From a virus: a stretch of DNA of 64,000 nt. A program made the position numbers and the translations under genes. The stretch is taken from positions 1-64,000 of the IMG/VR virus record IMGVR_UViG_3300010367_000050; one strand, 5' to 3'. Below, piece by piece: positions 2,507 through 59,096 of this stretch (positions are counted from its first letter, which is position 1; each line of letters begins with the position of its first letter). The notes beneath the pieces are model-generated. The model was not told the origin of the DNA, did no database searches, and worked only from the letters and a program-made list of their open reading frames with translations.

Positions 2507-2965
2507 TTACGCTCCTGTGGAACCGTGTCCACCTTCACCACGTTCGGTTTCATCCAGTTCATCTACCTGGATGGCTTCTCCCATAAAGAATGGGATATAG
2601 CCAATCTGGCAGATACGGTCTCCGGCTTCCCATTCAAAAGGCTCCGTTCCCCGATTTTCCAGGTGAATGGTGATGTCACCGCGATAATCGTTGTCGATGA
2701 GACCTTCCCAGAACAGCCGGACACTCTTCTTGGAAGCCATGCCAGAGCGACTGATCATCAGACCGTGAAGCCTGAACTCATGACCCATGATGTGGGTGCC
2801 AACGTTTACACGGTGCTTTACGCCTGTGTTGACCCGTACCCTGTCTCCAGGAAAAACCACCCCATTGGTGGGAGCATACAGGTCAAAGGCGCCAGACCCT
2901 GGCGTGGATCTCTTGGGGAGAACCGCACCAGGGTGAGTGAGTTTGAATTCAATGCGCGCTGTCAC
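2507..2965 (-). CDS. dut: trimeric dUTPase
   Basis: Motifs AFDL, SRSGMA, GLIDNDYRGDI, GDRICQ, RGEGGHGSTG. Start GTG 2965 immediately after the SSB stop. Confidence 0.95.
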   Translation of the reverse strand: MTARIEFKLTHPGAVLPKRSTPGSGAFDLYAPTNGVVFPGDRVRVNTGVKHRVNVGTHIMGHEFRLHGLMISRSGMASKKSVRLFWEGLIDNDYRGDITIHLENRGTEPFEWEAGDRICQIGYIPFFMGEAIQVDELDETERGEGGHGSTGA

Positions 2966-2966
2966 G

Positions 2967-4139
2967 TTATTTTGTCTTTCCTTTCTTGTGCTTTTCCAGT
3001 ATTTCGTCCAGGCTGTCAAGGTCATCGTCATCGTCGTCAGCCACCGGCTTCTTGGGGGTTGTCTTGGCCTTAGTCTTGGTCTTGGGGGTTTCTTCCTCTT
3101 CCTCCTCAACCTCCTCTTCCTCATCCACAGGCTCAGGGAATTCCTTCAGGTATTCCTTTGCCGGCTTGGATGGACGCTTACCCTCTTCAAGAGGCGGCGC
3201 ATCACCGTGACCGTTGACGCAGACATTGCCGGATGGGCTCTTGTATCGGTTCAGTCCGCAAACGGAGCAACGAGACTTCAGCTTAGGGAACTTGGTGACG
3301 TCCACCTCATCCTCTTCACTTTCGTCTTCATCCGGTTCGGGCTCAACCACCTTTGGTTTCTTCGCCGGAGCCTTCTCCGGGGCCTTAGACGTGGACTTTG
3401 CCGGCTTCTCATCTTCATCCTCATCGTCTTCGTCCTTGGCAGCGTCCTTGAGAGCAGCCCAGCCCTCATCCCAGACCAGCTTGGCCTTCTCAGGCTCGCC
3501 GCCGAACTGACTAAGCAAGTCCGTGAGATCGACAATCTTGGTGTCCTCAGCATCTTTGCCGATGAATGCCTTGATCTTCTTGGGGTCCTCGAAAAGTGGA
3601 CTGGGACGACGCTTGGGAACAACCTTGTACTCGGTGTTCAGGTCTTTGCCACTCTTCTTGACAATAAGGTCCACGCCCTCGTTGACGTCCAACAAATCGG
3701 CGTAGTCATCGGACGCGAGCAGAGTCAGAATCTCCGTGAGAAGCTGAGGACCACACTCCACGGTCTTCTGCTGGTCGTCATCGTCACGGTCGAGCACGTT
3801 GAAAAAGTACCGGCTCTTGCCCTGCTGATCACGACCCATCTGCTGGTCTTTCTTGTCCTTGGAGTTCAACAGTTCCTTGATCTCAGGGCAAATCTCGCAG
3901 GTATCACCCTTGGTTCCATCCTCGCCGTTGAGGCAGATGACCTTGACGCGGTCTTTCTTGTTCCCCTTGGAGTGGAACATGACTTCAACATAGAAGCCAT
4001 CCATATTGGGGTGTCCGGGCACGATACGGATGTTGTTGTCGCCGTCCTGGAACTCCATGTAATTCTTCTTGTACTTGGAGTTCTTGGACTTCAACTTCTC
4101 CAAAACTTTTTTGTATTTGAGCTGTTCTTCAGTTGCCAT
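2967..4139 (-). CDS. single-stranded DNA-binding protein (T4 gp32-like) with long acidic tail
   Basis: NNIRIVP, CL...CEIC, YFFNVLDR, GVDLIVKKSG..TEY, acidic C-terminus DDDDDDLDSLDEIL; replication context. Confidence 0.8.
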   Translation of the reverse strand: MATEEQLKYKKVLEKLKSKNSKYKKNYMEFQDGDNNIRIVPGHPNMDGFYVEVMFHSKGNKKDRVKVICLNGEDGTKGDTCEICPEIKELLNSKDKKDQQMGRDQQGKSRYFFNVLDRDDDDQQKTVECGPQLLTEILTLLASDDYADLLDVNEGVDLIVKKSGKDLNTEYKVVPKRRPSPLFEDPKKIKAFIGKDAEDTKIVDLTDLLSQFGGEPEKAKLVWDEGWAALKDAAKDEDDEDEDEKPAKSTSKAPEKAPAKKPKVVEPEPDEDESEEDEVDVTKFPKLKSRCSVCGLNRYKSPSGNVCVNGHGDAPPLEEGKRPSKPAKEYLKEFPEPVDEEEEVEEEEEETPKTKTKAKTTPKKPVADDDDDDLDSLDEILEKHKKGKTK

Positions 4140-4654
4140 TAGGCGTCATCTCTCTTTCCTGGAAATTTGCCGATATTACGGGTTGAAGCGTCAGGACGGA
4201 TTCGAGGCTCCGATTCCTGAAACATGTTGTTGTTGGACTTGGTGTACAAAGCCACAAGCATATCTCTGCGTTGCTGAAACGCCCACACCAAAGATTCCAG
4301 TGTGGCAGCGGTTACCTTGAAGTTGATGTACGCGTCCTGAGCATCACGAAAAGTCTTGGAGGCACGCACGGCGTACTTGATGCTTTCCTCAGTGATCTTG
4401 AACCCGTTGGGCAAGCCGTCTTTCCTGTACTTGTCATCCAAGCGAGCAAAAATCTGAGTCATGGAAGTCTCCAAAGCATCCAGCTGATTTTGTGCCTGGT
4501 CCCGGAGTGTGGCGTAGAACGCAAACGTGGACGCCTGTGTTTGTAGACACTCTCCCAAGTTGCCCATGTCAATTTCAAGGTCTTCCTCGGGGTGGAGCGT
4601 GTACTTCTTGCCGAATAGCTCCACCTCCAGTTCCTTCATTGGTTCAAACGCCAT
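4139..4654 (-). CDS. recombination mediator UvsY-like protein
   Basis: EDLEID...helical...AFQQRRDML pattern, adjacent to SSB and near RecA. Confidence 0.6.
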   Translation of the reverse strand: MAFEPMKELEVELFGKKYTLHPEEDLEIDMGNLGECLQTQASTFAFYATLRDQAQNQLDALETSMTQIFARLDDKYRKDGLPNGFKITEESIKYAVRASKTFRDAQDAYINFKVTAATLESLVWAFQQRRDMLVALYTKSNNNMFQESEPRIRPDASTRNIGKFPGKRDDA

Positions 4655-21336: not shown

Positions 21337-21807
21337 TTAGTGGTTGGACAGCTGGACAACAGTGGAGATGGTGTTGAAGCCCAGCTGAATGGACGAAAGC
21401 AACTGGTTGAACTTCGCCAGGGAGTCCGGGTCCAAGCCGCCGACGGAGTTGACGATGACTTGAATATCAGCCAGACCTTGAGCAACTTGTGTACGAATGT
21501 CAGCCGCACTCGCGTGGGACTTGATCAATCCGCTGAGTACAGGCTCCATCTGGCCGATTTTCTTGAAGGCTGATTGGATGACGATGTGATCCTGTGGCTT
21601 GATCAACTTCAGGGAGTACACGTCAGCTTCAGCCTGTTGAGCCAGTGAAGTGTAATTCATGACGTCATTCAGAACCGATTCGGCCTTGGCATAGGGGTCA
21701 AGGGTTGGGGCAACAACTCCAGTTGTGGAGGTGGAAGCCCGGTGAGCGCAACCGACTGTCGAGAAGACCAGAACGGCTGTAATGGTCAGGGCAAAAATCC
21801 TGCGCAT
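21337..21807 (-). CDS. lipoprotein, candidate spanin / outer-membrane disruption protein
   Basis: MRRIFALTITAVLVFSTVG-C lipobox, helical body, in the lysis cassette; AAGGAG RBS. Confidence 0.7.
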   Translation of the reverse strand: MRRIFALTITAVLVFSTVGCAHRASTSTTGVVAPTLDPYAKAESVLNDVMNYTSLAQQAEADVYSLKLIKPQDHIVIQSAFKKIGQMEPVLSGLIKSHASAADIRTQVAQGLADIQVIVNSVGGLDPDSLAKFNQLLSSIQLGFNTISTVVQLSNH

Positions 21808-21820
21808 GGGTTGCTCCTTG

Positions 21821-22180
21821 TTATTCGTATTTGGGAATTTCCCTGGACAGACCCTTGGGAAGCTTGGAGTCCAGGAAGTCCAAGACATCGTCGGCCAGAT
21901 ACCCGGCGAACACCGCGGTCAGCTTTGTGATGGGAGCGGCGTATGTCAATGTGATACCAGCCCAGGCAAACAACTTGTTGGCGAGTGTTGGGTCCCCCAC
22001 GTAGATAAGAAACAGACCCAGGAAGATGCCGAAGCGGATCACAAGCGGCACCCATAGCTTGATGAACCACGCTCCCATGGAAGGAGAAACGCCAGCCTTG
22101 ACAGCGTTCTGCGCTCCCTTGAGACAGTGAAAAAGGAATCCCAGCAGCAGTAGCAGGGACAGAATGACGAGGTTGTTCAT
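21821..22180 (-). CDS. putative holin (2-3 TM segments)
   Basis: Hydrophobic segments with a charged C-tail, directly after the endolysin. Confidence 0.65.
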   Translation of the reverse strand: MNNLVILSLLLLLGFLFHCLKGAQNAVKAGVSPSMGAWFIKLWVPLVIRFGIFLGLFLIYVGDPTLANKLFAWAGITLTYAAPITKLTAVFAGYLADDVLDFLDSKLPKGLSREIPKYE

Positions 22181-22193
22181 TATGATCTCCTTG

Positions 22194-22772
22194 TTAGATT
22201 GTGGGCCTTGTGTCAGCCCGTCTCAACCACCCATTCAGAAAAACCTTCTGCGTTGGGTCTCGTGCGACGATTGCGTTGTAATGGATTTTAGCCACTTGTA
22301 CCAAATTGGTGTAAACCTGCTCTGGCGTGCACAGGTGAAGAGTGCTCAGAGTGGTAGGCCCGAGGTCTCCATCCAACGTGAGATGAACGCCAGAGCAAGC
22401 AGTGATGGCGGTCTGTAGCATAATCCTGCCAACCTTGGGTCCACAATTGTATCCCAGATCGAAGGTCTTCACTGCTAACAGAGGGTCCATCTGCTCGAAT
22501 GCAGGTACATAAAATTTCAGTACCTTTGCAATTTCTCTAACATCAGAGCGACTCAGCTTGCGCAGATCATCAATGTCTACATCACCGTCTCCGTCCTTGT
22601 CAAAGGACACTGCAAAGTGATAAGCCATAGCGACCTTGCTGGCGTTGATCAAAGTTTGAAGGGTGACCCCCATCATTGTAGGGCCACCCTTGTCCAGAGG
22701 GTGATTTGAAAAACCACCCTCTATGTCCGGCCTCAGAGTGAAATCAAGGCACTTGTCCAGTATGTCTGCCAT
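22194..22772 (-). CDS. endolysin, glycoside hydrolase family 108 with PG-binding C-domain
   Basis: EGGFSNHPLDKGGPTMMGVT, FDLGYNCG, DGDLGPTT, FLNGWLRR. Confidence 0.92.
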   Translation of the reverse strand: MADILDKCLDFTLRPDIEGGFSNHPLDKGGPTMMGVTLQTLINASKVAMAYHFAVSFDKDGDGDVDIDDLRKLSRSDVREIAKVLKFYVPAFEQMDPLLAVKTFDLGYNCGPKVGRIMLQTAITACSGVHLTLDGDLGPTTLSTLHLCTPEQVYTNLVQVAKIHYNAIVARDPTQKVFLNGWLRRADTRPTI

Positions 22773-22781
22773 GTTATTCTC

Positions 22782-23384
22782 CTAGTGCATTTGAGACAGG
22801 GAGTGGGTGTAGAACCGGAAGAGTAGCACGCACACAGTGATTACAAGTCCCAGCGCAACAGAGGCAAACACGACAAGCGCACCAAACACCTGTGTAACCA
22901 ATATGGCTCCGATCCCTCGCTGTACAAGCTTCTCGTGCTTGTTGAGGTCCATACGGAGTTCGTGATGACCTCTCATCATATCTTCACGAAGCTTTTCAAG
23001 AGCTTGCTCGTTCTTCTCCATGCGCCGCTCGTTGGCTACGTGCATTTCTATTGTTTTTTCTTCTTTGTCTTTCACCATCTTCTCCACGAGGAATTTGGTG
23101 TCAACATTAGCTTGTTGCCAGCCTTTGTCGTAATGCTGACGTCTGGCTGGTTCCCCCTGAATGAAGGACTCAACCTTTGAGGCCCAACCTTCAACCTTGG
23201 CAGTAAGTTCATCAATCTTGCCTGTCAATACTTTCTCAAGTTTAGTCAAAAGTCCATCCGTCCCGCTGTGATCAAAGAGCATATTCATCCGCAACTCCGT
23301 CTCAGCTTGAAAGGTTTTCAGGCTCTCGATATCTTTGTCATGAGATATGTCGAGTGAACGCCCGCTGGCTCTGGTTGTGCCCAT
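22782..23384 (-). CDS. coiled-coil membrane protein (holin/antiholin-like)
   Basis: Coiled coil followed by a long C-terminal hydrophobic segment, just upstream of the endolysin. Confidence 0.55.
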   Translation of the reverse strand: MGTTRASGRSLDISHDKDIESLKTFQAETELRMNMLFDHSGTDGLLTKLEKVLTGKIDELTAKVEGWASKVESFIQGEPARRQHYDKGWQQANVDTKFLVEKMVKDKEEKTIEMHVANERRMEKNEQALEKLREDMMRGHHELRMDLNKHEKLVQRGIGAILVTQVFGALVVFASVALGLVITVCVLLFRFYTHSLSQMH

Positions 23385-23415: not shown

Positions 23416-24273
23416 CTATTGAACGTCAGTCTCATACCAGGATTGGCTTAGATACGTTGTGGTGCCTCCGCGATTGATCTGATACCACCAACCAGCAGGC
23501 ACCATACACCGGAATCCAACTGGTTGATTATTTGTGGTAGCTCCATATTGATTCGCGTCTATTCTCATAGAGGGAAAGCTTGGACCTACAGTACAGTCAA
23601 CCCAAGACCAGTTGGAACCATTTACGTTGAACCACCCTGATACAAAAATCATGTGGTTGGTGTTATTCTGATACGGAACCCCTGACCCGCGTGAACCACT
23701 CACGTCGTGAACATTTCCACCGATAACTGTGGGGGCTGGCGTGTCACAATTAGCTGATCCAGTGGTAGTTACTCCAGTAGCGAATTGACCAGCGCTGCAC
23801 TGGTTAGGTGGATTGGCCAAAGCAGACGCGGTGTTAGCTGTATTGGCACTCCCAGCAGTCGTAGCGTTTCCGGCGTTCGTTGCATTGTCTGCGTTATTGG
23901 CGTGTCCAGCGTTTGTAGCATTTGCTGCATTCGTCGCATTCGTAGCGTTGACGGCATTCGTAGCGTTTGTAGCAGTTGTGGCACTGCCCGCACTACTGGA
24001 GTAGTCCGCGTTGGTAGCATGACCAGCGTTGGTAGCGGAACTTGCGTTTCCATTCAGTGAACCATTGAACACAGACGCTGTAACACTCGTTGCCACGTTC
24101 AAAGCATTAGCTACCAAGCTTGTAAACCCGCCGCTTGATGGCACGTTGTTACCGATTGGAGTGCTGTTGATCTGTGAAAGAGTGAGGTCCACTCCGCGTT
24201 GAGGAGTCAACCCAAAGGCAACTCCCAAGACAACGAGGATAACGGTAGCTCCAAATAATGTCTTGTTACGCAT
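23416..24273 (-). CDS. tail-fibre-like protein with N-terminal signal peptide
   Basis: MRNKTLFGATVILVVLGVAFG; FNGSLNGNASSAT followed by NAT/NAG/NAD tripeptide repeats; C-terminal domain SRGSGVPYQNNT...VPAGWWY. Confidence 0.75.
   Translation of the reverse strand: MRNKTLFGATVILVVLGVAFGLTPQRGVDLTLSQINSTPIGNNVPSSGGFTSLVANALNVATSVTASVFNGSLNGNASSATNAGHATNADYSSSAGSATTATNATNAVNATNATNAANATNAGHANNADNATNAGNATTAGSANTANTASALANPPNQCSAGQFATGVTTTGSANCDTPAPTVIGGNVHDVSGSRGSGVPYQNNTNHMIFVSGWFNVNGSNWSWVDCTVGPSFPSMRIDANQYGATTNNQPVGFRCMVPAGWWYQINRGGTTTYLSQSWYETDVQ
23820..24050 (-). repeat. 9-nt-period coding repeat (Asn-Ala-Thr/x)n
   Basis: ATNATNAVNATNATNAANATNAGHANNADNATNAGNATT. Confidence 0.8.
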
Positions 24274-24282
24274 AATGTCTCC

Positions 24283-25185
24283 TTAGATGGCTGTCATAGC
24301 CGTGAGAGGGTACAATTCCAGGTTGTCATGAGCCTTGAATTTCTGCTGCGATCTACTGTTGGCATCTGGAGCGACAAGGCCGAACCCGTGAACTGTGCCG
24401 GGGTTGGCAACGCCTCGGTTACCTAATCCGTCCTGTTGGAATATCAGGGTGATCTCCATACCTTCCTTCAGGTTGCTGAATCCGAAGGTGGCTACATCAC
24501 TTGATAACAGGATATGGAATGTTCTTCCCAGAGAGGCGTCCATAGTCATACCGGTAGCACCATTCACGTGGACTGTGGTTTCCAGTAGCTTTGCGGTCAA
24601 CAACGCGCTGGTGATGAGGGCCAGGATAGCCGGGATGGACTGGAAGAATTGTGTGCGTTCAAACTTGATTTGATCAGCTGTGATAGCTGTTTGCCCAAAT
24701 TCTCGCTTGACATCGCAAAGAAGACTTCCCACGAATCCGGCTGGGGGAGCTACTGGGTACACCGGTTCGTAGTCTTCATCGCCGACGACGAAAATGTATT
24801 GAACGTCGTCGTATGTTCTGTAGTTGATTACGTCACCCGCAGGAGTGGTGAGGGGAGTATCTGAAGTTTGCTTCGGGCAAGCGTACACTGTGACCCAGCG
24901 AGATTTACCGGCTGCTGACACTGTGCCAGTCTGGGATAGATCGAGTGCCGTTGCCAGTGATGTTACCACTATGGTTCCGTCCTCCAGTACAATCTTGCCC
25001 GGCTGGACTAGCACAGACATGGAGTTGACTGGAGTGGTAGGAAGCGTTCCGAACCCATTGACGATGCCTTTGTTTCCAAATGACACGAGGACATCACGGA
25101 TTCCATTCTGAGGAACGGTCTCCACGGCTGTCATGTCTGGTACGCCGATGAGTTGTTCAAAATAGTAATTGTGCCGTTCCATCAA
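24283..25185 (-). CDS. baseplate-attached short tail fibre / adaptor
   Basis: MERHNYYFEQL..GIVNGF..VLVQPG N-terminal baseplate-fibre motif; no signal peptide. Confidence 0.65.
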   Translation of the reverse strand: MMERHNYYFEQLIGVPDMTAVETVPQNGIRDVLVSFGNKGIVNGFGTLPTTPVNSMSVLVQPGKIVLEDGTIVVTSLATALDLSQTGTVSAAGKSRWVTVYACPKQTSDTPLTTPAGDVINYRTYDDVQYIFVVGDEDYEPVYPVAPPAGFVGSLLCDVKREFGQTAITADQIKFERTQFFQSIPAILALITSALLTAKLLETTVHVNGATGMTMDASLGRTFHILLSSDVATFGFSNLKEGMEITLIFQQDGLGNRGVANPGTVHGFGLVAPDANSRSQQKFKAHDNLELYPLTAMTAI

Positions 25186-25194
25186 ATCTCCTCG

Positions 25195-25953
25195 TTATTG
25201 AAAGACAAAGCGCCAGTTGTACCTGGCGGGCTTCATGAATTCCACAATGGTAGCGATCTCATCCAACAGATTGTCGTTGGCTCCAAACATGAAGTAGGGG
25301 TCCGCGTACAAGTCAGTGACTTCATCTGCAGACACAGTCCTATTCCAAATTCTCACGTATTCCAAAGCTGGATTGTTGTAGAAACTTTCCAATTCAGGAA
25401 GGTCTGAAAACTTTGAGATCGTAAGAAATCTGGCAGCTGGAGACTGAGTATCCGTTAGAATTCCATCGATGTAAGTGAATTGCCCAATTCCGGGGTCTTG
25501 TGAGATCACAACATGGCGTTGGTGATCAGAATTATCCCACGCTAAATACTCGATGGAGTATTTGCCGGCCAGGAAAACGTCCTCAGCTAAATTAGCATCG
25601 GCTCCCGAGAAGTCAATTCTCAGCGCAGGCCTCGCATCGGTTCCTACTGTAACCCAAGTTGCACCAGAACGAGTCGCGGTGTTCCCGCCAGCTACATCAT
25701 CAGCATTTCCTGCACCTTCCCATAGGGGCCAAAATTGCGGTATAAACTCTAATGATGGACCCTGCGCTATGGTCAGACTGGATGACGCGGGTTTAGCCCC
25801 GGCTATCCTACGCTTGACATAAACAATGAAAGTTGGAGAGTTGGGGTCATACAGAATTGTAGCCCCTTCTTCGACAGGGGGCGAAGAAGGGTCATAACCA
25901 CCCCACCCACCTTGACCCCAGCCGCCTTGACCCCATCCAATATTTGGACTCAT
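25195..25953 (-). CDS. baseplate wedge (gpI-like C-terminal part) with LamG/ConA-like insert
   Basis: GWGQGGWG N-terminal motif; YIDG, VRIWNRTVSADEVTDLY (LamG-like); ends IVEFMKPARYNWRF. Confidence 0.6.
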   Translation of the reverse strand: MSPNIGWGQGGWGQGGWGGYDPSSPPVEEGATILYDPNSPTFIVYVKRRIAGAKPASSSLTIAQGPSLEFIPQFWPLWEGAGNADDVAGGNTATRSGATWVTVGTDARPALRIDFSGADANLAEDVFLAGKYSIEYLAWDNSDHQRHVVISQDPGIGQFTYIDGILTDTQSPAARFLTISKFSDLPELESFYNNPALEYVRIWNRTVSADEVTDLYADPYFMFGANDNLLDEIATIVEFMKPARYNWRFVFQ

Positions 25954-25959
25954 GTGTAA

Positions 25960-25997
25960 CCCTCGGTTTGAAGTATATCACAATCTCAAACCGAGGG
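25960..25997 (-). promoter_or_regulatory. 12-bp inverted repeat covering the RBS, with an extended -10 in the loop
   Basis: minus CCCTCGGTTTGA-GATTGTGATATACT-TCAAACCGAGGG-TTACAC-ATG. Confidence 0.6.
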
Positions 25998-26044
25998 GTA
26001 GTTGATTCAGAATTACAGGCAACGCTGGTTACCATTGCAACAGG

Positions 26045-29000
26045 CTACCATGTCCAATAAATTGAAACATCGATTGTTGGAGCCGTTGCGCAAGTGCCAG
26101 AGCTTATAGCAATCCCATAATAATGTCCGCTTACTGTTGGAGTTACTCCTGATGCTTGGTAAACACCATCGGACGTACCTGTAAACAAGGTTTGTACAGT
26201 AGTTGCGGAACCATATACTGTTGATGGGCTTGTTCCTAAATCCATCAGGTTGATTGTGGGCGCAACCGTACAAGAAATCGAGCCTTCAAGACGCGCGGTG
26301 ATGAGCGGTCCAGTAGTACCGACATAGGTCGTATAAAATACATGACCTAGCATCGTTCCAGTTGCAAATACAGCAGGGGAAATAGTTGTACTGACATTCG
26401 TACTTATAAGCCCATTGTTAATTGCGTTTTGAACATATGCAGTTGTTGCAACTAACGTTGAACTATCAGCGCTTGTTTGAGTTGTGGCTGTTGTTCCATT
26501 AGGTAGCACTGTCGTATCGACAGCATTTAGGTTGGAATCTATTCCGACAATGTGGCCGCTGGTGAAGGTGCCCAACGCACTTAGTAATTTTGTGCCTGTT
26601 GTTCCTTGTACTCCTGTAAGTAGAGTGCTGCGACCAAAGAGTTCCAGACCTGTTTGCTTGAGGCCCCAGAGACGGTTGTTCAAGCTGTCGGAAAACAATG
26701 CTAAATAACCAGCAAATGAGGAGTCTGGTGATACAAAAATACCGCATCCGCCCGAAGGACAGGCACCACTGCTGCTGTTAGCCTTGATCCTGAAGATGGG
26801 AACAGTCCCAGTCATGAACCCAGTAGAAAAGGCAAAGTCCATGTTTGGATTGTTTGTGGCGGTTACTTGGAAATTGAATGGCTGAAGGCTAAGAACTCGG
26901 TCGTTTCCGTGAGTATTCCCGCACTGGAAAGCGTGAGACCAGCCATTGGTCATAATGTCAAATGAGCAATAATTGGCTCCGTTGGCTGCGTCTTGCGTCT
27001 TGATTCTCCAAGCTCCAGTACCGCCAAGTACGCTTCCCTGGGCGAAGTACACATTGTAGTTGTTGTCTGGAGTTTTGAACCCGGCCACTGTTCCAAAGTC
27101 TATTGGAGTAGCTGGAGAGTTCACTACAAGATAACCTGACGGGTTCCATTTGCTAGCTGTGTAAACTGTGCCAGCGCCACCAGTATCATACATACAAGGA
27201 TTGGTCTTTGTATTCGTGTAAAGGGCTGTGTCATAAACCACGATTGGACCAGAATATCCAGCTGTTCGAATCAAAGAGTAATAGAACGCCCCGAGAATGG
27301 GTCGAGGTAGACAAATTTGAATGTAATTGGTTGCACTCAGAGTTGCAGGCCCAGTAGTGACGTTGACTACAGGAGAACAACCACTGGGGTTGAGATTACC
27401 GCCTCCAGCTGCGCAAATCATGTAAGATGCTGAGGTACTTCCTACTGCCGCTGGAGGAATATAAACAGTAGGAGTTGTAAGAGTGTCCGGTTGGGTGACG
27501 AGAGCGCCTTTGCTAATAATTCCACCCAGTGCTGTTATTTGATGAAGTGCAGGATCAAAATACAATCCAACGCCTCCAGTCCTGGTAAACTTTACTGAAG
27601 GGGCTGTTACGGACCCTTGACCAACTTCAATAGCAGTGAATGCCTTAGTCGCAAAAAGATCCTGCGGCGGAATTCCTCCAACTTGTTGAGCAATCGAATT
27701 TAGCAAAGCTCGCCCACCAGGACCAATGTGGGTGGTAGGGTCACTAACTCCAAATAACAACCTGGTGAGTCCATCATGTGAGTTGGGTTGAGCAAAACCT
27801 ACATCAAGAAACATCGCGTTGCCGCTTACGCCACGATTGATCTGGTTTACTTGAGCCATTATTGCTTGATCTAAAGGACCAACCGCGTTTACAGTGGAAG
27901 TATTGCCTGCTTGGTACGCATCAACCCAAACTAAATCTGCGGTGTACGCTCGGCATTGCGTATCCCACCCGTAACCAGCTGCGTTACAAGCTGTCGATGT
28001 GCCATAGGTAGCTGCTTTGGTTACGTGTTGAGCGTTTGTGCGATCGTAGTCCTTTTGGAAGTAGGTTTCGATTCCATTCCCAGCTTCAGTCCTGTTATCG
28101 AAGTACTGCACATACGTTGTGTCTGGAATTGGCATTCCATTGTACCACGGAGCAGTATACGAGTCTGGAGCCGCAAACAAGCTATCATAGCTCGAACCGC
28201 CGAAGCCCATGTCTTCAATAACAATACCACTCTGGTTAGGGTTGTAAAGACCAAATCCCACGATCTTCACCGCATCGCCAGAGTTTGTTACCTTCACATA
28301 GCCAATTCCATCATGAGTGACCCTAGCTTCTTGAATGCTTATGTTTGATGTGAGAAGATTCCCCCATGTTGGCAATGAACCAGTACAACTTCCCCCGGTT
28401 ACAGTTATGGTAGATGTGTATGGGTTATATCCACTGCCCTGACTGGTAACAGTGACATGATCAATCTGACCTAGAGAATTAGGAAACGCAGTACCAACGA
28501 ATCCTGTGCCTCCAGTAGCTCCAAGAGTGAGTGTTCCACATCCAGACCCGCTGCCTACACCAAGCACTCCAACAGCAACAATACCTCCAGTAGCAGCGCA
28601 TGAACTTGGTTGGGTGCTAGAGAGAGTTTCGTTGAAATAGTTGAGACCGTCAGAAGACGTTTGAATATTGATGGTAGATGGCTTACCGTCGCACAGATAG
28701 AAGACGGAAGCCTGCTGCATATTGCGCTGTCGTGTATCTGTGCCCATTTGCGCTGAAACAAGATTGAATGTCAGAGTACCAGTAGTACTGGACGAACCCA
28801 GGATAAGGGACGAACCATTTGGAGTTGTGGGGTCTGGTGCCCCGTTAGGGGAAAGCGTTACAGAACCACTGGTACCGGAATTCAGATTGATTGAGCCCTG
28901 ACCGAGTCCATAGAAACCTTCATTGTTAGCTCCACCAGTATGCGCTGTACTAGTGAAATATCCAGCTACACCCAATCCAAAAGACTGCTGCATAATGGAA

Positions 29001-29839
29001 TAAAAGGTTGCAAAAGCACTTACGGAGTCACCGTGAAATCTAACAGCCCACTGAACAAGGGAGGGTATTCCTGTGATAGAGGGAGTTACGCCGTTGTTGA
29101 GGAGATCAATCCAGTGGGACTTGATGGTCCCCTCACGCGGGTAATAATCTTTGCGTTGAGTGGTAGGCTGGAAAAAGTTATTGCCTCGACTTCCAAACGT
29201 CTTCCCAGCGCGGTCATCCACAACCTGTGTCGTGCATGTTGGCGTCATGTAGTTTGGAGTATTGTCAACTGTATCAGTAACAGTTGAGTTCGCAGGTACA
29301 TACACATTCAAATTTGTGGCTGGTGCGCAAGCTGCTGTGTAAGCCGCTTGGATAGTGGCGTATGTTACGCCATCAGCTATTACCAGTCCTAATGCCGAAG
29401 TTGAACCTCCATTGGATGTTGAAATAACGTTGTACCCGGAGGTATCCGAAAAGGCCACTCCACTCTGTCCGTTAGCAAAGACAGCAGATGAGCCCGTTGT
29501 AGCCTTGACGCACACATTCTTACCGCCCAGTGTATTGTTCTTGACGTACACCGCCCTGCCAGGAGAGATTGGAAGAATCAAGCACCTGTCTGCAGTCAAA
29601 GAGACAGAGCTTGAAACGATGAAGGTGCCACGGAAGGGTCCGTCAGCGGCAGGAACAGTGCATCCGCTGGGAGATACGATATCGCAATCCGCATTGCCAA
29701 TCACAATAGACGACAACCCGTGATCGCTGTCCGTGGGCGAGTTTACTGTTGAGTGGGCACTCAAGCCGATACCCTGAGCATAGCTCATTGTCCCAGCAAA
29801 GGCCAACAGCAGAGCAAGAAATAATTTGCGCATTTTCAC
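26045..29839 (-). CDS. large tail spike / receptor-binding protein with signal peptide and probable SGNH esterase domain
   Basis: MRKLFLALLLAFAGTMSYA-Q; FHGDSV...GFGGSS...DPTTH SGNH-like blocks; ATTQTSADSSTLVATTAYVQ fibre motif; 22 Cys. Confidence 0.75.
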   Translation of the reverse strand: MKMRKLFLALLLAFAGTMSYAQGIGLSAHSTVNSPTDSDHGLSSIVIGNADCDIVSPSGCTVPAADGPFRGTFIVSSSVSLTADRCLILPISPGRAVYVKNNTLGGKNVCVKATTGSSAVFANGQSGVAFSDTSGYNVISTSNGGSTSALGLVIADGVTYATIQAAYTAACAPATNLNVYVPANSTVTDTVDNTPNYMTPTCTTQVVDDRAGKTFGSRGNNFFQPTTQRKDYYPREGTIKSHWIDLLNNGVTPSITGIPSLVQWAVRFHGDSVSAFATFYSIMQQSFGLGVAGYFTSTAHTGGANNEGFYGLGQGSINLNSGTSGSVTLSPNGAPDPTTPNGSSLILGSSSTTGTLTFNLVSAQMGTDTRQRNMQQASVFYLCDGKPSTINIQTSSDGLNYFNETLSSTQPSSCAATGGIVAVGVLGVGSGSGCGTLTLGATGGTGFVGTAFPNSLGQIDHVTVTSQGSGYNPYTSTITVTGGSCTGSLPTWGNLLTSNISIQEARVTHDGIGYVKVTNSGDAVKIVGFGLYNPNQSGIVIEDMGFGGSSYDSLFAAPDSYTAPWYNGMPIPDTTYVQYFDNRTEAGNGIETYFQKDYDRTNAQHVTKAATYGTSTACNAAGYGWDTQCRAYTADLVWVDAYQAGNTSTVNAVGPLDQAIMAQVNQINRGVSGNAMFLDVGFAQPNSHDGLTRLLFGVSDPTTHIGPGGRALLNSIAQQVGGIPPQDLFATKAFTAIEVGQGSVTAPSVKFTRTGGVGLYFDPALHQITALGGIISKGALVTQPDTLTTPTVYIPPAAVGSTSASYMICAAGGGNLNPSGCSPVVNVTTGPATLSATNYIQICLPRPILGAFYYSLIRTAGYSGPIVVYDTALYTNTKTNPCMYDTGGAGTVYTASKWNPSGYLVVNSPATPIDFGTVAGFKTPDNNYNVYFAQGSVLGGTGAWRIKTQDAANGANYCSFDIMTNGWSHAFQCGNTHGNDRVLSLQPFNFQVTATNNPNMDFAFSTGFMTGTVPIFRIKANSSSGACPSGGCGIFVSPDSSFAGYLALFSDSLNNRLWGLKQTGLELFGRSTLLTGVQGTTGTKLLSALGTFTSGHIVGIDSNLNAVDTTVLPNGTTATTQTSADSSTLVATTAYVQNAINNGLISTNVSTTISPAVFATGTMLGHVFYTTYVGTTGPLITARLEGSISCTVAPTINLMDLGTSPSTVYGSATTVQTLFTGTSDGVYQASGVTPTVSGHYYGIAISSGTCATAPTIDVSIYWTW

Positions 29840-29848
29840 AATTCCCCT

Positions 29849-30973
29849 TTAGTTATTTGGCCTCGGGCTATAGGACCCAGAGATGTAAGTATTGACAGTT
29901 GCGTACAGGCACATACCCACCGAATCGCTGTGTTGATTGGTGAACGTGAATGAAGTGCCAGAGTCCATAACGAGAGCAAACCCCGATACTGTGTCTGTCC
30001 ATGATGAGTGGGTACAGCTGCCCGGAGTCGCAACGTAAATCTTCTGACCTCCAGTTGGAGAGTATGGACCGTACACCTTGTTTACAACAGTCGTTACTAC
30101 CCCAGCGTCTGTCAGAGTTCCCGACGTGTTTAGAGTACAGTTGTTGCTACTGGCAGAACACGAGGTGGCTCCAGTAGTTCCAACTCCACCGAACGTACGG
30201 GCGTTCCAACTTACAGTCGTTGATTGTGTCTTGGGAACTCCGTTCCCGGTCGCGTTCAGGGTGAACGTTGTTGAACTCGCTGAATGTTTTACAAATGAGC
30301 CTGTTACCGAGCCGCTGGTGAACGGGCTACTGAGAGTTGTAGGAGAACTGATGCTGTCGGTATTGGTGATGGTAGCGACCGTTGGCGTCACCGAATACGC
30401 TGCGCTGAACGTTGGATTTGTCAGCGTTGTTCCAATCTCCAGCAACGTTGTAGGCGTCGTAAAGCTGTTGATGGTGAACGACGGACCTGACGAAATTGTG
30501 GTGGTACCCCCACCAGTGGAGATAGCAATGCCGTCACCGGCTACCAAGTTAGGAACATGATTGTCCACATATTGCTTCGTGGTCGCTTGCAACCCCGTAG
30601 TTGGGTCAGCAGGCAGCACAATTGCTCCGGTCATAGTACCACCAGCCAACGGCAAGTAGCCTGCAATGGTTCCGCTGAAGGAGCCAGTGAGAAGGCTCAG
30701 ATTTCCGCTTTGATCAATGGACAAAAGGTGGGTTCCGTCATTCTTGTCGATGTAGAAGGTTCCTGAATTGCGCAACCTCCACGGAGCGGAATTGTCTCCT
30801 GTGAGATAGCCTTCCAGCATCGTCATATTGCCATTGGCCACCACATCCCAATTTGGGTAGCCTTTGGGTGGTATGTAGAACTTCAACTTGGGAGTCTGGT
30901 ACTGAGGCCCAAGCTGCGCCTGGGCTGATAACAGACCAAACAATAGTGTGATGGCAAATACAATCCGTCGCAT
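29849..30973 (-). CDS. tail-fibre-like protein with signal peptide
   Basis: MRRIVFAITLLFGLLSAQA-Q; TPKLKFYIP..W..ANGNM anchor-like motif; YLPLAGGTMTG..ATTKQYVD fibre repeat; Ig-like Thr/Ser-rich region. Confidence 0.75.
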   Translation of the reverse strand: MRRIVFAITLLFGLLSAQAQLGPQYQTPKLKFYIPPKGYPNWDVVANGNMTMLEGYLTGDNSAPWRLRNSGTFYIDKNDGTHLLSIDQSGNLSLLTGSFSGTIAGYLPLAGGTMTGAIVLPADPTTGLQATTKQYVDNHVPNLVAGDGIAISTGGGTTTISSGPSFTINSFTTPTTLLEIGTTLTNPTFSAAYSVTPTVATITNTDSISSPTTLSSPFTSGSVTGSFVKHSASSTTFTLNATGNGVPKTQSTTVSWNARTFGGVGTTGATSCSASSNNCTLNTSGTLTDAGVVTTVVNKVYGPYSPTGGQKIYVATPGSCTHSSWTDTVSGFALVMDSGTSFTFTNQHSDSVGMCLYATVNTYISGSYSPRPNN

Positions 30974-31029: not shown

Positions 31030-31494
31030 TTAGGACGTTGTAGTGCCGCCCAAAGTGCTTACACCGAGTCTCCAGCAGTACTCTAGGTCCACACGGATAG
31101 TCACGTTTGCCCCGGTGAGATAACGGATTGCTGAGATCATACCCTGCTTCGTACCCCTGCGAGCATAGATGTCTGTCAACTGTTCCAGCTTGTTGCCAGC
31201 TTTCCAGCGTTCAGGAGTCATGAATGGAAACGGGGTGCCCAGCTTTTGAGCATTGTACGGGATGAAGTCCACGGGCGAATTTCTGACAACGCCGATCTGG
31301 CTCAATAGAACAGTAGCATCCTGTACCTCTTGTTGCTGGGAAGTGTACGCTTCAGCAAAATCCACAAGAGACCCGTCGTCCACTGTGATGTAGATTCCAG
31401 GTATGATCTCAAGTATGTCAATGGGGGTTGCTGAATAGCCCCCATAGCCACCTTCGCCCCATCCGCCCTCGCCCCATCCGCTTTGTGGTGTCAT
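31030..31494 (-). CDS. baseplate wedge, P2 gpI-like (N-terminal part)
   Basis: IPYNAQKLG..IYARRGTKQGMISAIRYLTG; follows baseplate J. Confidence 0.75.
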   Translation of the reverse strand: MTPQSGWGEGGWGEGGYGGYSATPIDILEIIPGIYITVDDGSLVDFAEAYTSQQQEVQDATVLLSQIGVVRNSPVDFIPYNAQKLGTPFPFMTPERWKAGNKLEQLTDIYARRGTKQGMISAIRYLTGANVTIRVDLEYCWRLGVSTLGGTTTS

Positions 31495-32921
31495 GAGAAA
31501 GTAACCGTCCCCAATACTGGAAATTCATTTACAGCTAGCTGTGTATCAGCAGGAGCAAGAATGGCAAGATTGCGAACCCCAGCAAGTTGCTGAAGAATGG
31601 CGATCTGAACAGATGTATAGATTCCCATACCGAACTCGGGTTTGAATCCGGAGTACCCATTGACTGGATCATACGCTGGATCATACATATTGATGAGAGC
31701 CTGGCGGATCACATTCTGTACGCTAACCTGTGTATAGCCTGTAGACACATTCAGCTGAATGTTGTAGTTCATCGTCCTGTACGTCGGGCCCATAACCACG
31801 ATCTCATGGCCAAGCACAACTGGCTTCGTCACTGTTAGCAGAGTGATTACGTCAGACTTCAACTGATCTGAAGGTTGTCCACCGCCCACCGGAACAATAA
31901 ACACTTCAATCATCTGACGTGGCAAGCTGGAAAGCGTCTTCCAGTTCACGGCCTGAGCTACCTGAACTCCAGGAATCTGAGTCACGGCGGACTCAATGTC
32001 GTCCAAAGTCAGCAGGGCTTGCGGAACCCGCAGATTGTCTACTGCGTGATAACGTACCTGATCCATGGTTTCCACATCGCCACCCGGAGTAGCCGCAAGA
32101 GCATTGATAGCCGTCAAACTCAAGGGCTGAGCGCTGCCAGCATCGTTGACGTCAGATACGGCATTGGTCAGCTGCTGAGCACCAATGGCTCCTTTGGATC
32201 CACCTCCTGTTTTGTATGACATTTGGATGTTGGCATTCACAGGCGGCTTCTTGCCAGTAGCTCCATTTCCAAAGATAACTGTCGACACGCCGTTTGAATT
32301 GGTATAGGTCGAGTAATGCGTGTCTGTAGCAAGGGAGTCGACAAAGTTTTTCACGAATGTCCAAGTTACCCCATTGACAACGACAACCACTTCGTCCGGC
32401 ATAACAGGGTAGTTGGTTAGATCGTACATCTGGTTAGCAGCACCAGTGCCGGTTGCGTTGTCAGTATATGACACCCACTGCTTCATCAAGACAGCGTCTG
32501 ATAGTGTGGCTCCGGCACGAATTACAACGGGCTCAGTGGTCTCATACACAATCCCAGGCAGGGTGGTGTTGAACTGAGTTCCGGCGGGAATTTCTGTATC
32601 TGCCGTGACTGCTGTTGCTGACTGAATCACCGCTGAAACATAGGAGGGTGTTTGCCAGCGTGGCGTGTATCCAAGGCCACGAGCGTGAGCAAACACATTC
32701 CTTGGATCCAATGCCTCCATGATGAAAGCTTCACGGGCCATACGATTGATGTATGCGAAGTTCATCTCTGCTACCATAGAGATGGCTTCAAGCAACATGA
32801 TCATATTGTTGGAGTCTTGGTTGTCGGTCCACTCCGGAAACTTGATGGTGAGGCGTGCGATCAACTCCTGAAGGAGACTGTCAGCAGTAACTGATGTCAA
32901 AGGAAGCTGGTCAACTGGCAT
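31491..32921 (-). CDS. baseplate J / T4 gp6-like wedge protein
   Basis: PEWTD, INRMAREAF, LGY, IPAGT, FGNGATGKKP, GGDVET, LTLDDIE. Confidence 0.92.
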   Translation of the reverse strand: MPVDQLPLTSVTADSLLQELIARLTIKFPEWTDNQDSNNMIMLLEAISMVAEMNFAYINRMAREAFIMEALDPRNVFAHARGLGYTPRWQTPSYVSAVIQSATAVTADTEIPAGTQFNTTLPGIVYETTEPVVIRAGATLSDAVLMKQWVSYTDNATGTGAANQMYDLTNYPVMPDEVVVVVNGVTWTFVKNFVDSLATDTHYSTYTNSNGVSTVIFGNGATGKKPPVNANIQMSYKTGGGSKGAIGAQQLTNAVSDVNDAGSAQPLSLTAINALAATPGGDVETMDQVRYHAVDNLRVPQALLTLDDIESAVTQIPGVQVAQAVNWKTLSSLPRQMIEVFIVPVGGGQPSDQLKSDVITLLTVTKPVVLGHEIVVMGPTYRTMNYNIQLNVSTGYTQVSVQNVIRQALINMYDPAYDPVNGYSGFKPEFGMGIYTSVQIAILQQLAGVRNLAILAPADTQLAVNEFPVLGTVTFS

Positions 32922-35944: not shown

Positions 35945-38302
35945 CTATCTCCCAGATGCAGTCTCACCCTGCTGATGAGTTGTAACCGCGTTACCCACCG
36001 CACGCCCGTCAAGCTTGACTGTGCTGTTGACTTGGATAGGCCGTCTGCTCATGTCTCGGGTAGCAGTAGCCAGCTGTTGAACATGCTGCTGTGTAATCGC
36101 GTGCTGCGAGTCTTGTCTATTCTGATTAGCTGATTGCGGTCCAATCAGAGCATCAGCGTGTTCACGCGGGAGAGTTCCTTGTGGAGTCAACAGAGTCATC
36201 GTCTCTCCGGCCATTGCTGCCCCAATGCCAGGGATGATCGATAAGGCTGCTCTGACAGCCACGCCCAGAGCTTCAAATTTGGAGATGATCCAGTCAATGG
36301 CTTTCTGAAACGTGTTGCTTATCCAAGATGTGAACTCTCCAAACCAAGACTTGAGCAACCCCCAGTTCTGAATAATGAGGATGGGCAGAGCAAACCACGG
36401 AGCTAACATCGTGATGGCTGTCTTAGCCGCCGTCCCAAGCCCGGTGAACCATCCAACAATCTCATTGCGGTATCGCAAGAACGCGATAATGCCTACAACT
36501 AGCGCAGCAATAGCGGCAATCACTAATCCAATCGGATTGGCAGTCATAGCCGCGTTCCACGCCCATTGTACGGCTGTGGCAATTCTGGCGGCTGCGGTGA
36601 AAGCAATGGTGACAGCGTTAGCGATTCCTACAGCTACAGCACCGGCTGCGGTAGCCACTCTCCATACAGCAATAGCCGCCGTCCAAGCTATCTGAGCGGC
36701 TGTCGCCACAATAACTCCAACACGGTAGGCGGCTACAGCAAAGATAAGGGCACCCATTGTGACCCCAAATGCTTTCCAAACGCCGGAGCCCATGCTGGTT
36801 CCGAGAAGTCCCAAAGTTTCAAGCAGACGCATTCCGGCCCATACCAATCCCCACAGAGGCGCGGTGACCCACAGAACTGCTGATGTTAGGTATCCCATCA
36901 CCTCGATAGCAATCTGGATACCTTCAACTAAGCCAGTAACAAACTTGTATGCTCTGTAGAAGATCATGAACAACTCTGTAACAATACCGGTCAACCCGTT
37001 CTTGGCTAAGGCATCGGCTGTTGAGCCTGACAATTGACCAATTCCATTCTTCATGGACATCACAAGCTGTACCATAGCTGTGCCTACAAGAATGGTCTTA
37101 TCCCAGAAGCTCTTCAGCACGTCACCAATTCCAAGGAAATTGTTCTTGACGGCTACATAGATCAATCCTGCTGCTACCAAGAACCAACCCACGGGTCCGG
37201 AGAGCGCGAGTAGGCTCTGGCCTAGAGCAGCTACCTGTTGCGCTCCCATGACGAACTGAACGAACTTCCATACGCCCAGCAGAATAAGTGTCGCGCCTGC
37301 TGCGTTGAGAACTGCTCCAGTCAAAGCTATCACAGCTATAGCCAACTTAGTAAAACCAGGATGCTGTTGGGCTAGTGTCATAAACCAGATAGCCAGCCGC
37401 CCGATGGGAGCTAGCAGAGCCGTTGCGCCTTTGAGAACCCACGCCAGTCCATCACCTACCGCCTTTGCGAATGGGATTACCACAGATGGGTCGAACACGT
37501 CCAGTACAGCCTGTAGAATCTGCTTGATCTGGGGTTTGATGCGGTCACCGATCTGAGCCCCAAGAATGATCAACTGATCCTGAACGTTGGACCACATACC
37601 AGGGATAGTGCCCATGTACATCTTCATGCCACCGGCAAACTTGGCTTCAATAACCTTGTTGACTGCGGCCAAGAATTTCTCTGGGTCAGCACCCTTGACG
37701 GTTCTGTGAGTCTTGGGGTCAATTGGGCCTCCAGCTTCCTGAATATCCTGGTAGCTAATGCCACGTACCTGCATAAACCGCATGGCCTGTGCGTAGGCTC
37801 CGGTGCGGACCTTACCAAGGATCATGGCAGCATAGTCAATGGGCATCTGCATCATCGAGGCCCATTCTCCGGCGGTCTGAAGTTCCTTCATGACTCGTTG
37901 AGACGTAAAACCAAACGCCAATAGGTTCTTGGCGCCAGCCATGACCTGTGGAATAGTGAACGGGGTCTTCACAGCGAATGTCGTCAGCTGCTCAAACAGA
38001 TTGTCGCCCACAGTCGCGTCCCTAGCCATCAACCTGATCTGATTACGCAATATTTCCAAGTCATTTGACGACTTGAGGGACACCTTACCGATGCCCCCCA
38101 AGAACGCCATGAGTCCAGTACCAAGGAACATAAGGCTGCTTCCGGCTCCCATCAACTTCCAACCATTGTTGATCTGATTCTGGTTGTTGATGATAGCATT
38201 GGTGAGGTTCTTGGATGAACTCACAATGGCCTGGCTAGGGGCAGAGAACATGTTGCGTAGTTGTACCGTCACTCCCATTCCCAGCATATCTGTCAAAGCC
38301 AT
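35945..38302 (-). CDS. tape measure protein
   Basis: FAVKTPFT, TIPGMWSNVQD, AWNAAMTANPIGLVIAAIAAL; follows the tail chaperone. Confidence 0.93.
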   Translation of the reverse strand: MALTDMLGMGVTVQLRNMFSAPSQAIVSSSKNLTNAIINNQNQINNGWKLMGAGSSLMFLGTGLMAFLGGIGKVSLKSSNDLEILRNQIRLMARDATVGDNLFEQLTTFAVKTPFTIPQVMAGAKNLLAFGFTSQRVMKELQTAGEWASMMQMPIDYAAMILGKVRTGAYAQAMRFMQVRGISYQDIQEAGGPIDPKTHRTVKGADPEKFLAAVNKVIEAKFAGGMKMYMGTIPGMWSNVQDQLIILGAQIGDRIKPQIKQILQAVLDVFDPSVVIPFAKAVGDGLAWVLKGATALLAPIGRLAIWFMTLAQQHPGFTKLAIAVIALTGAVLNAAGATLILLGVWKFVQFVMGAQQVAALGQSLLALSGPVGWFLVAAGLIYVAVKNNFLGIGDVLKSFWDKTILVGTAMVQLVMSMKNGIGQLSGSTADALAKNGLTGIVTELFMIFYRAYKFVTGLVEGIQIAIEVMGYLTSAVLWVTAPLWGLVWAGMRLLETLGLLGTSMGSGVWKAFGVTMGALIFAVAAYRVGVIVATAAQIAWTAAIAVWRVATAAGAVAVGIANAVTIAFTAAARIATAVQWAWNAAMTANPIGLVIAAIAALVVGIIAFLRYRNEIVGWFTGLGTAAKTAITMLAPWFALPILIIQNWGLLKSWFGEFTSWISNTFQKAIDWIISKFEALGVAVRAALSIIPGIGAAMAGETMTLLTPQGTLPREHADALIGPQSANQNRQDSQHAITQQHVQQLATATRDMSRRPIQVNSTVKLDGRAVGNAVTTHQQGETASGR

Positions 38303-38478
38303 CACTTACCTCCGGATGCAACTGATTCCTCGTACTCCAACTGCTTTTTGTGAATGTGTAGCAAGATTGCTCGTTCCGTTACTGTAAGCTCAAGAAAGTC
38401 ATTCCAACCCAACGGGGCTCCACCTTTGGCAAGAAAATACCAATCGGCTAGTAGTCCATGTTGGGGGTTATAAAATTT
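38302..38478 (-). other. -1 frameshift extension of the tail chaperone (gpGT equivalent)
   Basis: Slippery A AAT TTT at 38478-38472; -1 frame open (YNPQHGLLADWYFLAKGG...ASGGK) to a TGA overlapping the tape-measure ATG. Confidence 0.85.
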
Positions 38479-58656: not shown

Positions 58657-59096
58657 CGTTGGGAAGATAGTGTTTCATGGATCGTCTTCTGTGTTTGATG
58701 AATCCATAGCGCAAGGCTGGAAGGGCACAGTTCATGTAACTGATGTACCCCGTCTTGCGGTTATGGAGGCTGTATGGAAGTGCTCTGGAGATGGGTCGCA
58801 TATAGATGACTCTCTCAAGAAAGTACACGTTGGTGGGCGTCCTACTCTCTACATGCTTGTTGTCAATCCACGCAAACTACGTTGGGATGACGCATGGTGT
58901 AAAGAAGACGGACCCCCACTTTTGCTGGTCGTTACCGGCTTCTGCCATTTGGGATACAGTAAAGTTAGACCGCGCGTGCTTGAAACAATTGATACAGGAG
59001 TTGTTGGAGAAACGCACGTACCACGACTACAACAAGATTACACTTATCAACGACACCGAAAGTCTGAATCAGATACGTGTGGTCCAAGGAGAATAA
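58634..59096 (+). pseudogene. hypothetical gene with an apparent +1 frameshift
   Basis: Two overlapping frames (58628.. and 58806..59096) join into one ORF if one C of the C5 run at 58913-58917 is removed. Confidence 0.45.

Follow-up and report, generated by a model that had tools for sequence, protein, structure and literature searches.

The virus record IMGVR_UViG_3300010367_000050 is a single contig of 80,508 bases, assembled from a soil metagenome, and its first 64 kb (positions 1 to 64,000) form the stretch analyzed here, referred to as the window. This stretch is found in soil metagenome DNA runs of one study only, and the sequencing-run search lists no RNA runs containing it. The late genes all lie on the minus strand, and Pfam and PHROG analyses report a complete and colinear myovirus module, with the large terminase, portal, protease, and major head protein in its head part, and the sheath, tube, tape measure, baseplate hub, gp25-like wedge, and baseplate J in its tail part. 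The phage is a myovirus with a contractile tail. Downstream of baseplate J come, in this order, a 154-residue protein at the gpI position, P0001, P0002, a 252-residue protein, a 300-residue protein, P0003, and the lysis region. P0001, P0002, and P0003, encoded between positions 23,416 and 30,973, are fiber-like proteins that open with predicted Sec signal peptides, and the original prediction, made from the letters of the DNA, had taken them for a candidate exported, disulfide-folded adsorption apparatus. Their three open reading frames (ORFs) lie on the minus strand with the coordinates and N-termini that it had given, and contain 4, 22, and 4 cysteines, as it had counted. They are the following, the arrow marking the predicted cleavage site:

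29849..30973, minus strand: P0001, fiber-like, 374 residues, 4 cysteines (272, 279, 320, 355), at the gpH/fiber position
30917..30973, minus strand: signal-peptide coding part of P0001 (MRRIVFAITLLFGLLSAQA, residues 1-19, AQA↓Q)
26045..29839, minus strand: P0002 (database record P0082), fiber- or spike-like, 1262 residues from the ATG at 29833, 22 cysteines
29777..29833, minus strand: signal-peptide coding part of P0002 (MRKLFLALLLAFAGTMSYA, SYA↓Q)
23416..24273, minus strand: P0003, fiber-like, 285 residues, 4 cysteines, start MRNKTLFGATVILVVLGVAFG↓L (residues 1-21)

The motifs that had been singled out in these proteins are all present, namely the cysteine pairs CDIVSPSGC, CPSGGC, and CSASSNNC, and the LAGGTMTG..TKQYVD, ATTAYVQ, and NAT repeats. 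P0001 comprises the signal, an N-terminal fiber motif, the LAGGTMTG..TKQYVD repeat, and two C-terminal beta-sandwich domains. P0003 starts with a signal peptide or anchor, followed by an INSTPIG motif, NAT-type repeats, and a C-terminal domain that ends with WYET.

An AGGAG-type Shine-Dalgarno sequence is found at the right distance upstream of all three starts. The P0002 ORF opens with a GTG, and the ATG two codons on (29833), which is the start in P0082, is the likelier one. A simple n/h/c-region scan flagged 9 of the 109 ORFs of the whole genome, and P0001, P0002, and P0003 are the top-scoring flags among real genes, all within 7.5 kb. Their n-regions are positively charged (MRR- in P0001, MRK- in P0002, MRNK- in P0003), and their h-regions are ~14, ~13, and ~18 residues long, respectively, the Sec criterion being ~7-15. 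The predicted sites, AQA↓Q, SYA↓Q, and AFG↓L, have small residues at -3 and -1, and no proline at +1. Because of its hydrophobic core of ~18 residues and its G↓L site, P0003 may be an uncleaved signal anchor. Two other types of signal were considered and rejected. Tat export does not agree with the MRR of P0001, which is not conserved (KK, KF, or KR in relatives), nor with a signal of 19 residues and a very hydrophobic core, and a lipoprotein signal (signal peptidase II) with the lack of any cysteine near the cleavage site in the three proteins.

These signals are kept among relatives. A search with P0001 returned 75 proteins besides the query, 20 of which, sharing the C-terminal 210 residues, were aligned (alignment A1). 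All of the 20 aligned relatives possess a signal peptide, and Q20 is nearly invariant; the sequences of the signals drift freely in this family, with the n/h/c layout kept. The P0002 family has seven members including the query, six of them with a signal ending in A↓Q or G↓Q. The seventh, P0087 from Terriglobus albidus, has its annotated methionine ~40 residues into the alignment and no signal, its start having probably been called too far downstream. The C-terminal domain of P0003 occurs in 56 proteins, 26 of which are flagged with a signal, and the signal-less ones mostly open with a canonical fiber N-terminus of the MATTNLQQWNP type. Taken at the level of sequence, the comparison supports Sec/signal peptidase I signals that look genuine and match those of the host, conserved despite the divergence of their sequences.

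As to the nature of the proteins that bear them, P0001 comes directly behind the baseplate J gene and the one at the gpI position, which is where phages of the P2/Mu type have their fiber. Many proteins without a signal, some of them with fiber Pfam domains, are hit by its LAGGTMTG..TKQYVD segment. The most telling evidence that it would be a fiber comes from the alignment of the N-termini: signal-less fibers start with their methionine exactly at the predicted cleavage position of the signal-bearing ones, and the motif TPNLxLxxPxxGxxxW...N...LD comes next in both groups. Since signal-less fibers begin at the cleavage position, the signal appears as an add-on placed before an ordinary fiber N-terminus. 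The predicted structure of P0001 shows the signal helix, poorly predicted residues 18-142, and the two beta-sandwich domains in the C-terminal half, with a predicted local distance difference test (pLDDT) score of ~90. These domains match predicted phage proteins, several of them named tail fiber (E-values of 1e-16 to 1e-6), and the comparison of the fold with the PDB returns only generic Ig/FN3/PKD-like sandwiches (residues 164-258, Z-score ~8). For P0003, the C-terminal domain is common to proteins with the canonical fiber N-terminus. The assignment of P0002 as a fiber is based only on its ATTAYVQ-type motif and its gene position: the AlphaFold2 model (residues 65-1264, seven sequences) has a mean pLDDT of 35.8 and is unusable, and an ESM Atlas search returned no match. 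Pfam, PHROGs, and PDB sequence searches did not return any family for P0001, P0002, or P0003. When the 154-residue protein of the gpI position was modelled as a complex with P0001 residues 20-150 in three copies, the score was 0.00, a result that counts neither way.

The cysteines of P0002 are informative. At 42-66% identity, 15 out of the 22 are invariant in the family. C1025 and C1030 are both replaced by alanine in the same two sequences. Cys108 of P0082 is present in six of the seven sequences, and a second cysteine is found at position 84 in two of them and at position 118 in four others, which looks like a disulfide partner of C108 that moved. Conserved, and lost or shifted in pairs, the P0002 cysteines thus appear from the alignment to behave as disulfide partners, a supported reading. 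The four cysteines of P0001 are common only to its closest relatives in A1. Because they combine secretion signals with conserved cysteine pairs, the three proteins probably fold in the periplasm and not in the cytoplasm.

Both P0002 relatives that carry organism names belong to Terriglobus, and on a contig of a Terriglobus sp., a homologue of P0001 (50% identity), one of P0002 (66%), and a lysozyme-like gene follow each other, in the order observed in the window. Because of these named relatives and this gene pair, the phage probably infects Terriglobia, i.e. Acidobacteriota of the Terriglobus group, as far as protein similarities can tell. On the Terriglobus contig L001, the segment 8338-15207 brings together a signal-bearing protein of 303 residues, the P0001 and P0002 homologues, and the lysozyme-like gene. 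The baseplate J of the window has no match in that genome, and this region would be a prophage with a different type of tail, or else a remnant. Terriglobus was taken as a proxy host, and the residue at +1 was surveyed in a 400-kb sample of the same genome, Terriglobus sp. 2YAB30_2 (L003-L022), with a heuristic that gave this residue no weight. Glutamine occupies +1 in 39 of the 77 predicted signals, as compared with 4.4% glutamine in the mature parts. The same genome encodes a glutaminyl cyclase of the plant/Xanthomonas type (PF05096, Glu_cyclase_2, 323 bits) and three DsbA-like proteins. Glutamine is also found at the predicted +1 position of P0001 and P0002, and not of P0003; P0001 and P0002 would therefore carry host-type signals, as Terriglobus has the same habit.

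The P0001 domain is present in 19 IMG/VR viral contigs, at the end of the structural module and usually after two large cysteine-free proteins. In most of these contigs, one or more cysteine-rich signal-bearing proteins of ~290-2000 residues follow, and the endolysin, where recognized, lies just beyond them. None of the 19 contigs shows similarity to the baseplate of the window, and one possesses a podovirus-type internal virion protein, which indicates that the cassette moves between tail types. A cultured example is found in Tunturi_5 (PP885688), a myovirus of Tunturiibacter, in which the proteins gp337 to gp341 all have signals ending in A↓Q, three being annotated as tail fiber or virion structural protein and two as hypothetical. 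Gp337 aligns with residues 9-145 of P0001 (34% identity). Tunturi_5 resembles the present phage as a myovirus of Acidobacteria with signals on tail-fiber or structural proteins and with a gp337 mature N-terminus homologous to that of P0001. The two phages are otherwise unrelated, Tunturi_5 being a jumbo phage of 309 kb.

The genes around the three proteins, together with those of the lysis region, are the following:

31491..32921, minus strand: baseplate J-like wedge protein, 476 residues, no cysteine, no signal (Pfam PF04865; phrog_219, phrog_6)
31030..31494, minus strand: 154-residue protein, start GWGEGGWGEGGYGGY, no signal, gpI-like by position only
25195..25953, minus strand: 252-residue protein, start GWGQGGWGQGGWGGY, no signal, no cysteine, no family match
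24283..25185, minus strand: 300-residue protein without signal, resembling phage tail-fiber/receptor-binding proteins (a lead only)
22782..23384, minus strand: 200-residue coiled-coil protein, transmembrane segment at the C-terminus, opens the lysis region
22194..22772, minus strand: endolysin (GH108 and PG_binding_3), no signal, no signal-arrest-release (SAR) segment
21821..22180, minus strand: holin candidate, 119 residues, 2-3 transmembrane segments
21337..21807, minus strand: spanin candidate, 156-residue lipoprotein (MRRIFALTITAVLVFSTVGC) with a lipobox cysteine

Baseplate J and the 252-residue protein are indeed devoid of cysteines, as had been noticed. By contrast, the idea that all the fibers of this module are exported is too strong, since the module includes the signal-less proteins of 154, 252, and 300 residues. 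The last of these gives, as a lead only, a feature score of 0.88-0.89 and a template modelling (TM) score of 0.5-0.6 against viral clusters, some of which contain Gp53-like_C or Phage_phiTE_241_C. Pfam and PHROG searches with the 154-residue protein did not return any match. The 154- and 252-residue proteins, neither of which has a family match, both start with a GWGxGGWGxGG(W/Y)GGY motif that may be a shared attachment element; a split gpI gene is not supported, as the common part covers only ~16 N-terminal residues (E-value of 0.28 for the remainder). The query with baseplate J returned no related viral loci, and in the phage collection neither blastn of the region nor tblastn of P0002 and P0003 gave a match. 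Elsewhere in the window, the tape measure (35945-38305, minus strand) also matches the endolysin PHROG phrog_971 over residues 439-690, which suggests from the sequence a tape measure with an internal wall-degrading domain. A 96-residue ORF in the early region (58806-59096, plus strand) has a signal-like N-terminus, MTLSRKYTLVGVLLSTCLLSIHA↓NY, and a 401-residue ORF with a signal-like start (2937-4142, plus strand) is antisense to a 390-residue ORF (2967-4139, minus strand) and is probably not a gene.

In the lysis region, the longest ORF at 21337-21888 (minus strand) includes 27 additional codons ahead of a far better start, that of the lipoprotein. This lipoprotein, encoded beside the holin candidate, is likely the spanin. 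Because the GH108 endolysin has no signal, a hole-forming holin must first open the inner membrane for lysis to proceed.

We infer from these data a chain of export, cleavage, disulfide formation, and docking. The proteins would be synthesized late, along with the products of the tail genes, and leave the cytoplasm through SecYEG. Signal peptidase I would cleave them, leaving P0001 and P0002 with an N-terminal glutamine that the host glutaminyl cyclase would turn into pyroglutamate, and P0003 would be cut at G21↓L22 or kept anchored in the inner membrane. Folding would take place in the periplasm, with disulfides made by Dsb proteins, and the tail with its J-type baseplate would be built in the cytoplasm. 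Once the holin opens the inner membrane for the GH108 endolysin, cytoplasm and periplasm would mix with the outer membrane still holding, and the fibers would dock on the baseplate of the finished tails via the conserved N-terminal fiber motif that follows the cleavage site. Lysis by a holin and a signal-less endolysin fits this sequence of events. The links of the chain are not equally firm: the export of P0001 and P0002 by Sec is, judging from their N-termini, highly probable, whereas docking onto the virion, the least secure step, is only plausible. That the whole chain holds, from export to docking after lysis begins, is a tentative proposal to which we give somewhat less than an even chance. 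Put in terms of the genes, P0001, P0002, and probably P0003 would be true phage tail-fiber or spike proteins that gained Sec signals of the host type, and this explanation as a whole is advanced with the same caution.

Signals and cysteine pairs would also fit any secreted protein, including one that leaves the cytoplasm and is never mounted on the virion. In that case, the site of action of the three proteins would be the periplasm, the medium, or the cell surface, where they could, for instance, mask or destroy the receptor or degrade the matrix; such a role off the virion, the main rival reading, which we consider rather unlikely, would exclude superinfection, prevent new particles from adhering to debris, or make the exopolysaccharide matrix looser. 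It gains weight because the phage possesses the signal-less proteins of 300 residues (a lead only) and 252 residues, and fiber-like proteins of this kind could serve the virion. It also agrees with the presence of the P0001-P0002 pair in a Terriglobus genome where the baseplate J of the window had no match, and accessory genes are often found where tail genes give way to lysis genes. Against it, the mature N-terminus keeps the motif that signal-less fibers bear at their very N-terminus, which in fibers generally is the virion-proximal end. Moreover, the genes are embedded in a tightly packed late structural operon and have the guanine-cytosine (GC) content of the phage, not that of the host, and in the 19 related viral contigs the structural module ends with signal-bearing proteins.

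The absence of any export is improbable. The proteins would then be cytoplasmic and join the tail in the usual way, as the textbook assembly of tailed phages has it, and the N-terminus would be buried in the baseplate, hold the protein at the inner membrane, or be removed by a phage protease. The 18-residue core of P0003 could indeed be a plain membrane segment, but the presence of all three n/h/c regions and of small residues at -3 and -1, the Gln +1 habit of the host displayed by P0001 and P0002, and a segment whose sequence drifts freely yet keeps its layout all speak for export. Besides, signal-less relatives manage without this segment, and one would not expect a cytoplasmic protein to conserve cysteine pairs that co-vary. 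Far less probable still is that the signals are an artefact of wrong starts, or that the genes are recent host genes located by chance in a phage contig. The annotation of P0087 without a signal and the origin of the window from a soil metagenome assembly could be cited in its favor, but the starts withstand the objection, raised with the original prediction, that the true ones may lie downstream: a Shine-Dalgarno sequence stands just upstream of each ATG, intergenic gaps are short, signals are kept in relatives, and the phage structural module of the contig is complete and colinear. A recent host origin was rejected, as the GC content of the three genes (0.48-0.51) is that of the phage and not that of Terriglobus (0.58).

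Several observations weigh against exported fibers that end up on the virion. The signal calls come from our own scan, a crude heuristic and not SignalP, and the long hydrophobic core of P0003 is equally compatible with a membrane anchor and with a cleaved signal. The co-occurrence of signals and cysteines that a survey of homologues was to look for is observed in the P0001 and P0003 domain families, but does not reach significance when the tree is taken into account. In the P0001 domain family (53 distinct proteins), the 40 proteins with a signal have a median of 6 cysteines and the 13 without a signal, 3 of which look like truncated signals, a median of 1; in the P0003 domain family, there are 2.3 cysteines per 100 residues with a signal and 1.1 without, the counts in both families being inflated by relatedness. 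The P0001-domain tree, built with the cysteines masked, calls for at least 8 changes between signal and no signal and offers no more than 3 independent pairs on supported branches; cysteines go in the same direction in 2-3 of them and never in the opposite one (sign test, p 0.25). Likewise, cysteines make up 1.56% of the three proteins versus 0.53% of the virion proteins (~3-fold, Fisher p 3e-5), but the three are not richer than the non-structural proteins of the phage (1.58%). Signal peptides go unmentioned in the Tunturi phage paper, which includes no virion proteomics either (PMC11924767). The signal-less 300- and 252-residue proteins are candidates for virion receptor binding, so that the virion may not need the exported proteins. 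Lastly, we know of no precedent for docking after export in tailed phages. On balance, the proposal that the receptor-binding proteins are secreted, folded oxidatively, and mounted on the virion is partly supported: the Sec-type signals, the fiber-like nature of the proteins, and the cysteines as partners stand, and the docking has the standing given above.

If exported fibers do reach the virion, they would define a two-compartment assembly pathway, not described for tailed phages, and fibers that pass through the periplasm would, if confirmed, add a new last step to an assembly taught as wholly cytoplasmic. More broadly, Acidobacteria phages with myo-, podo-, and siphovirus tails may send their receptor-binding proteins via Sec for oxidative folding in the periplasm, with assembly ending after the holin joins the compartments, a generalization that is slightly more doubtful than the account of the present phage. 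Adsorption proteins stabilized by disulfides and capped by pyroglutamate might explain their lasting in acidic, enzyme-rich soils. Annotation pipelines would have to drop the signal peptide as evidence against a virion protein, and a host-type Gln +1 signal could mark soil phages as phages of Acidobacteria. The cultured Tunturi phages make the question directly testable.

A full-text literature search found no account of signal peptides on the tail fibers of tailed phages. The three proteins share with the fibers of the P2/Mu-type J-I-H arrangement and of R-type pyocins (P2 gpH, Mu gpS) the gene position, the fiber motifs, and a variable C-terminal binding domain. Fibers of the P2 gpH/Mu gpS type are cytoplasmically assembled and lack a signal peptide. 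No chaperone gene was recognized in the present phage. The exported proteins known from tailed phages are lysis proteins, namely signal-peptide endolysins such as Lys44 of fOg44, SAR endolysins, T4 RI, and spanins, which, as proposed for P0001 and P0002, are late proteins that cross the inner membrane by the host Sec (PMC6116005). They differ from P0001, P0002, and P0003 by their role in lysis and not in the adsorption apparatus. To our knowledge, the known adsorption proteins that fold in the periplasm belong to filamentous phages. The g3p protein of the filamentous Ff phages is a receptor-binding protein with a signal peptide and disulfide folding in the periplasm. However, the Ff virion is extruded through the envelope, so that periplasmic assembly is expected, whereas here a tailed, DNA-packaging particle is built in the cytoplasm. 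As for the cleavage sites, the Q-rule, i.e. a glutamine at +1, comes from work on Bacteroidetes (PMC5837995), which makes no mention of Acidobacteria. The A↓Q sites of P0001 and P0002 resemble those of Q-rule substrates, and Terriglobus has the same habit and a glutaminyl cyclase, but the glutamine is borne here by phage proteins of structural type. What this window contributes is the context of a P2/Mu-type myovirus baseplate and the coexistence with signal-less fiber-like proteins, as well as the Gln +1 habit measured in Terriglobus, the alignment of the cleavage site with signal-less fibers, and the covariation of the P0002 cysteine pairs.

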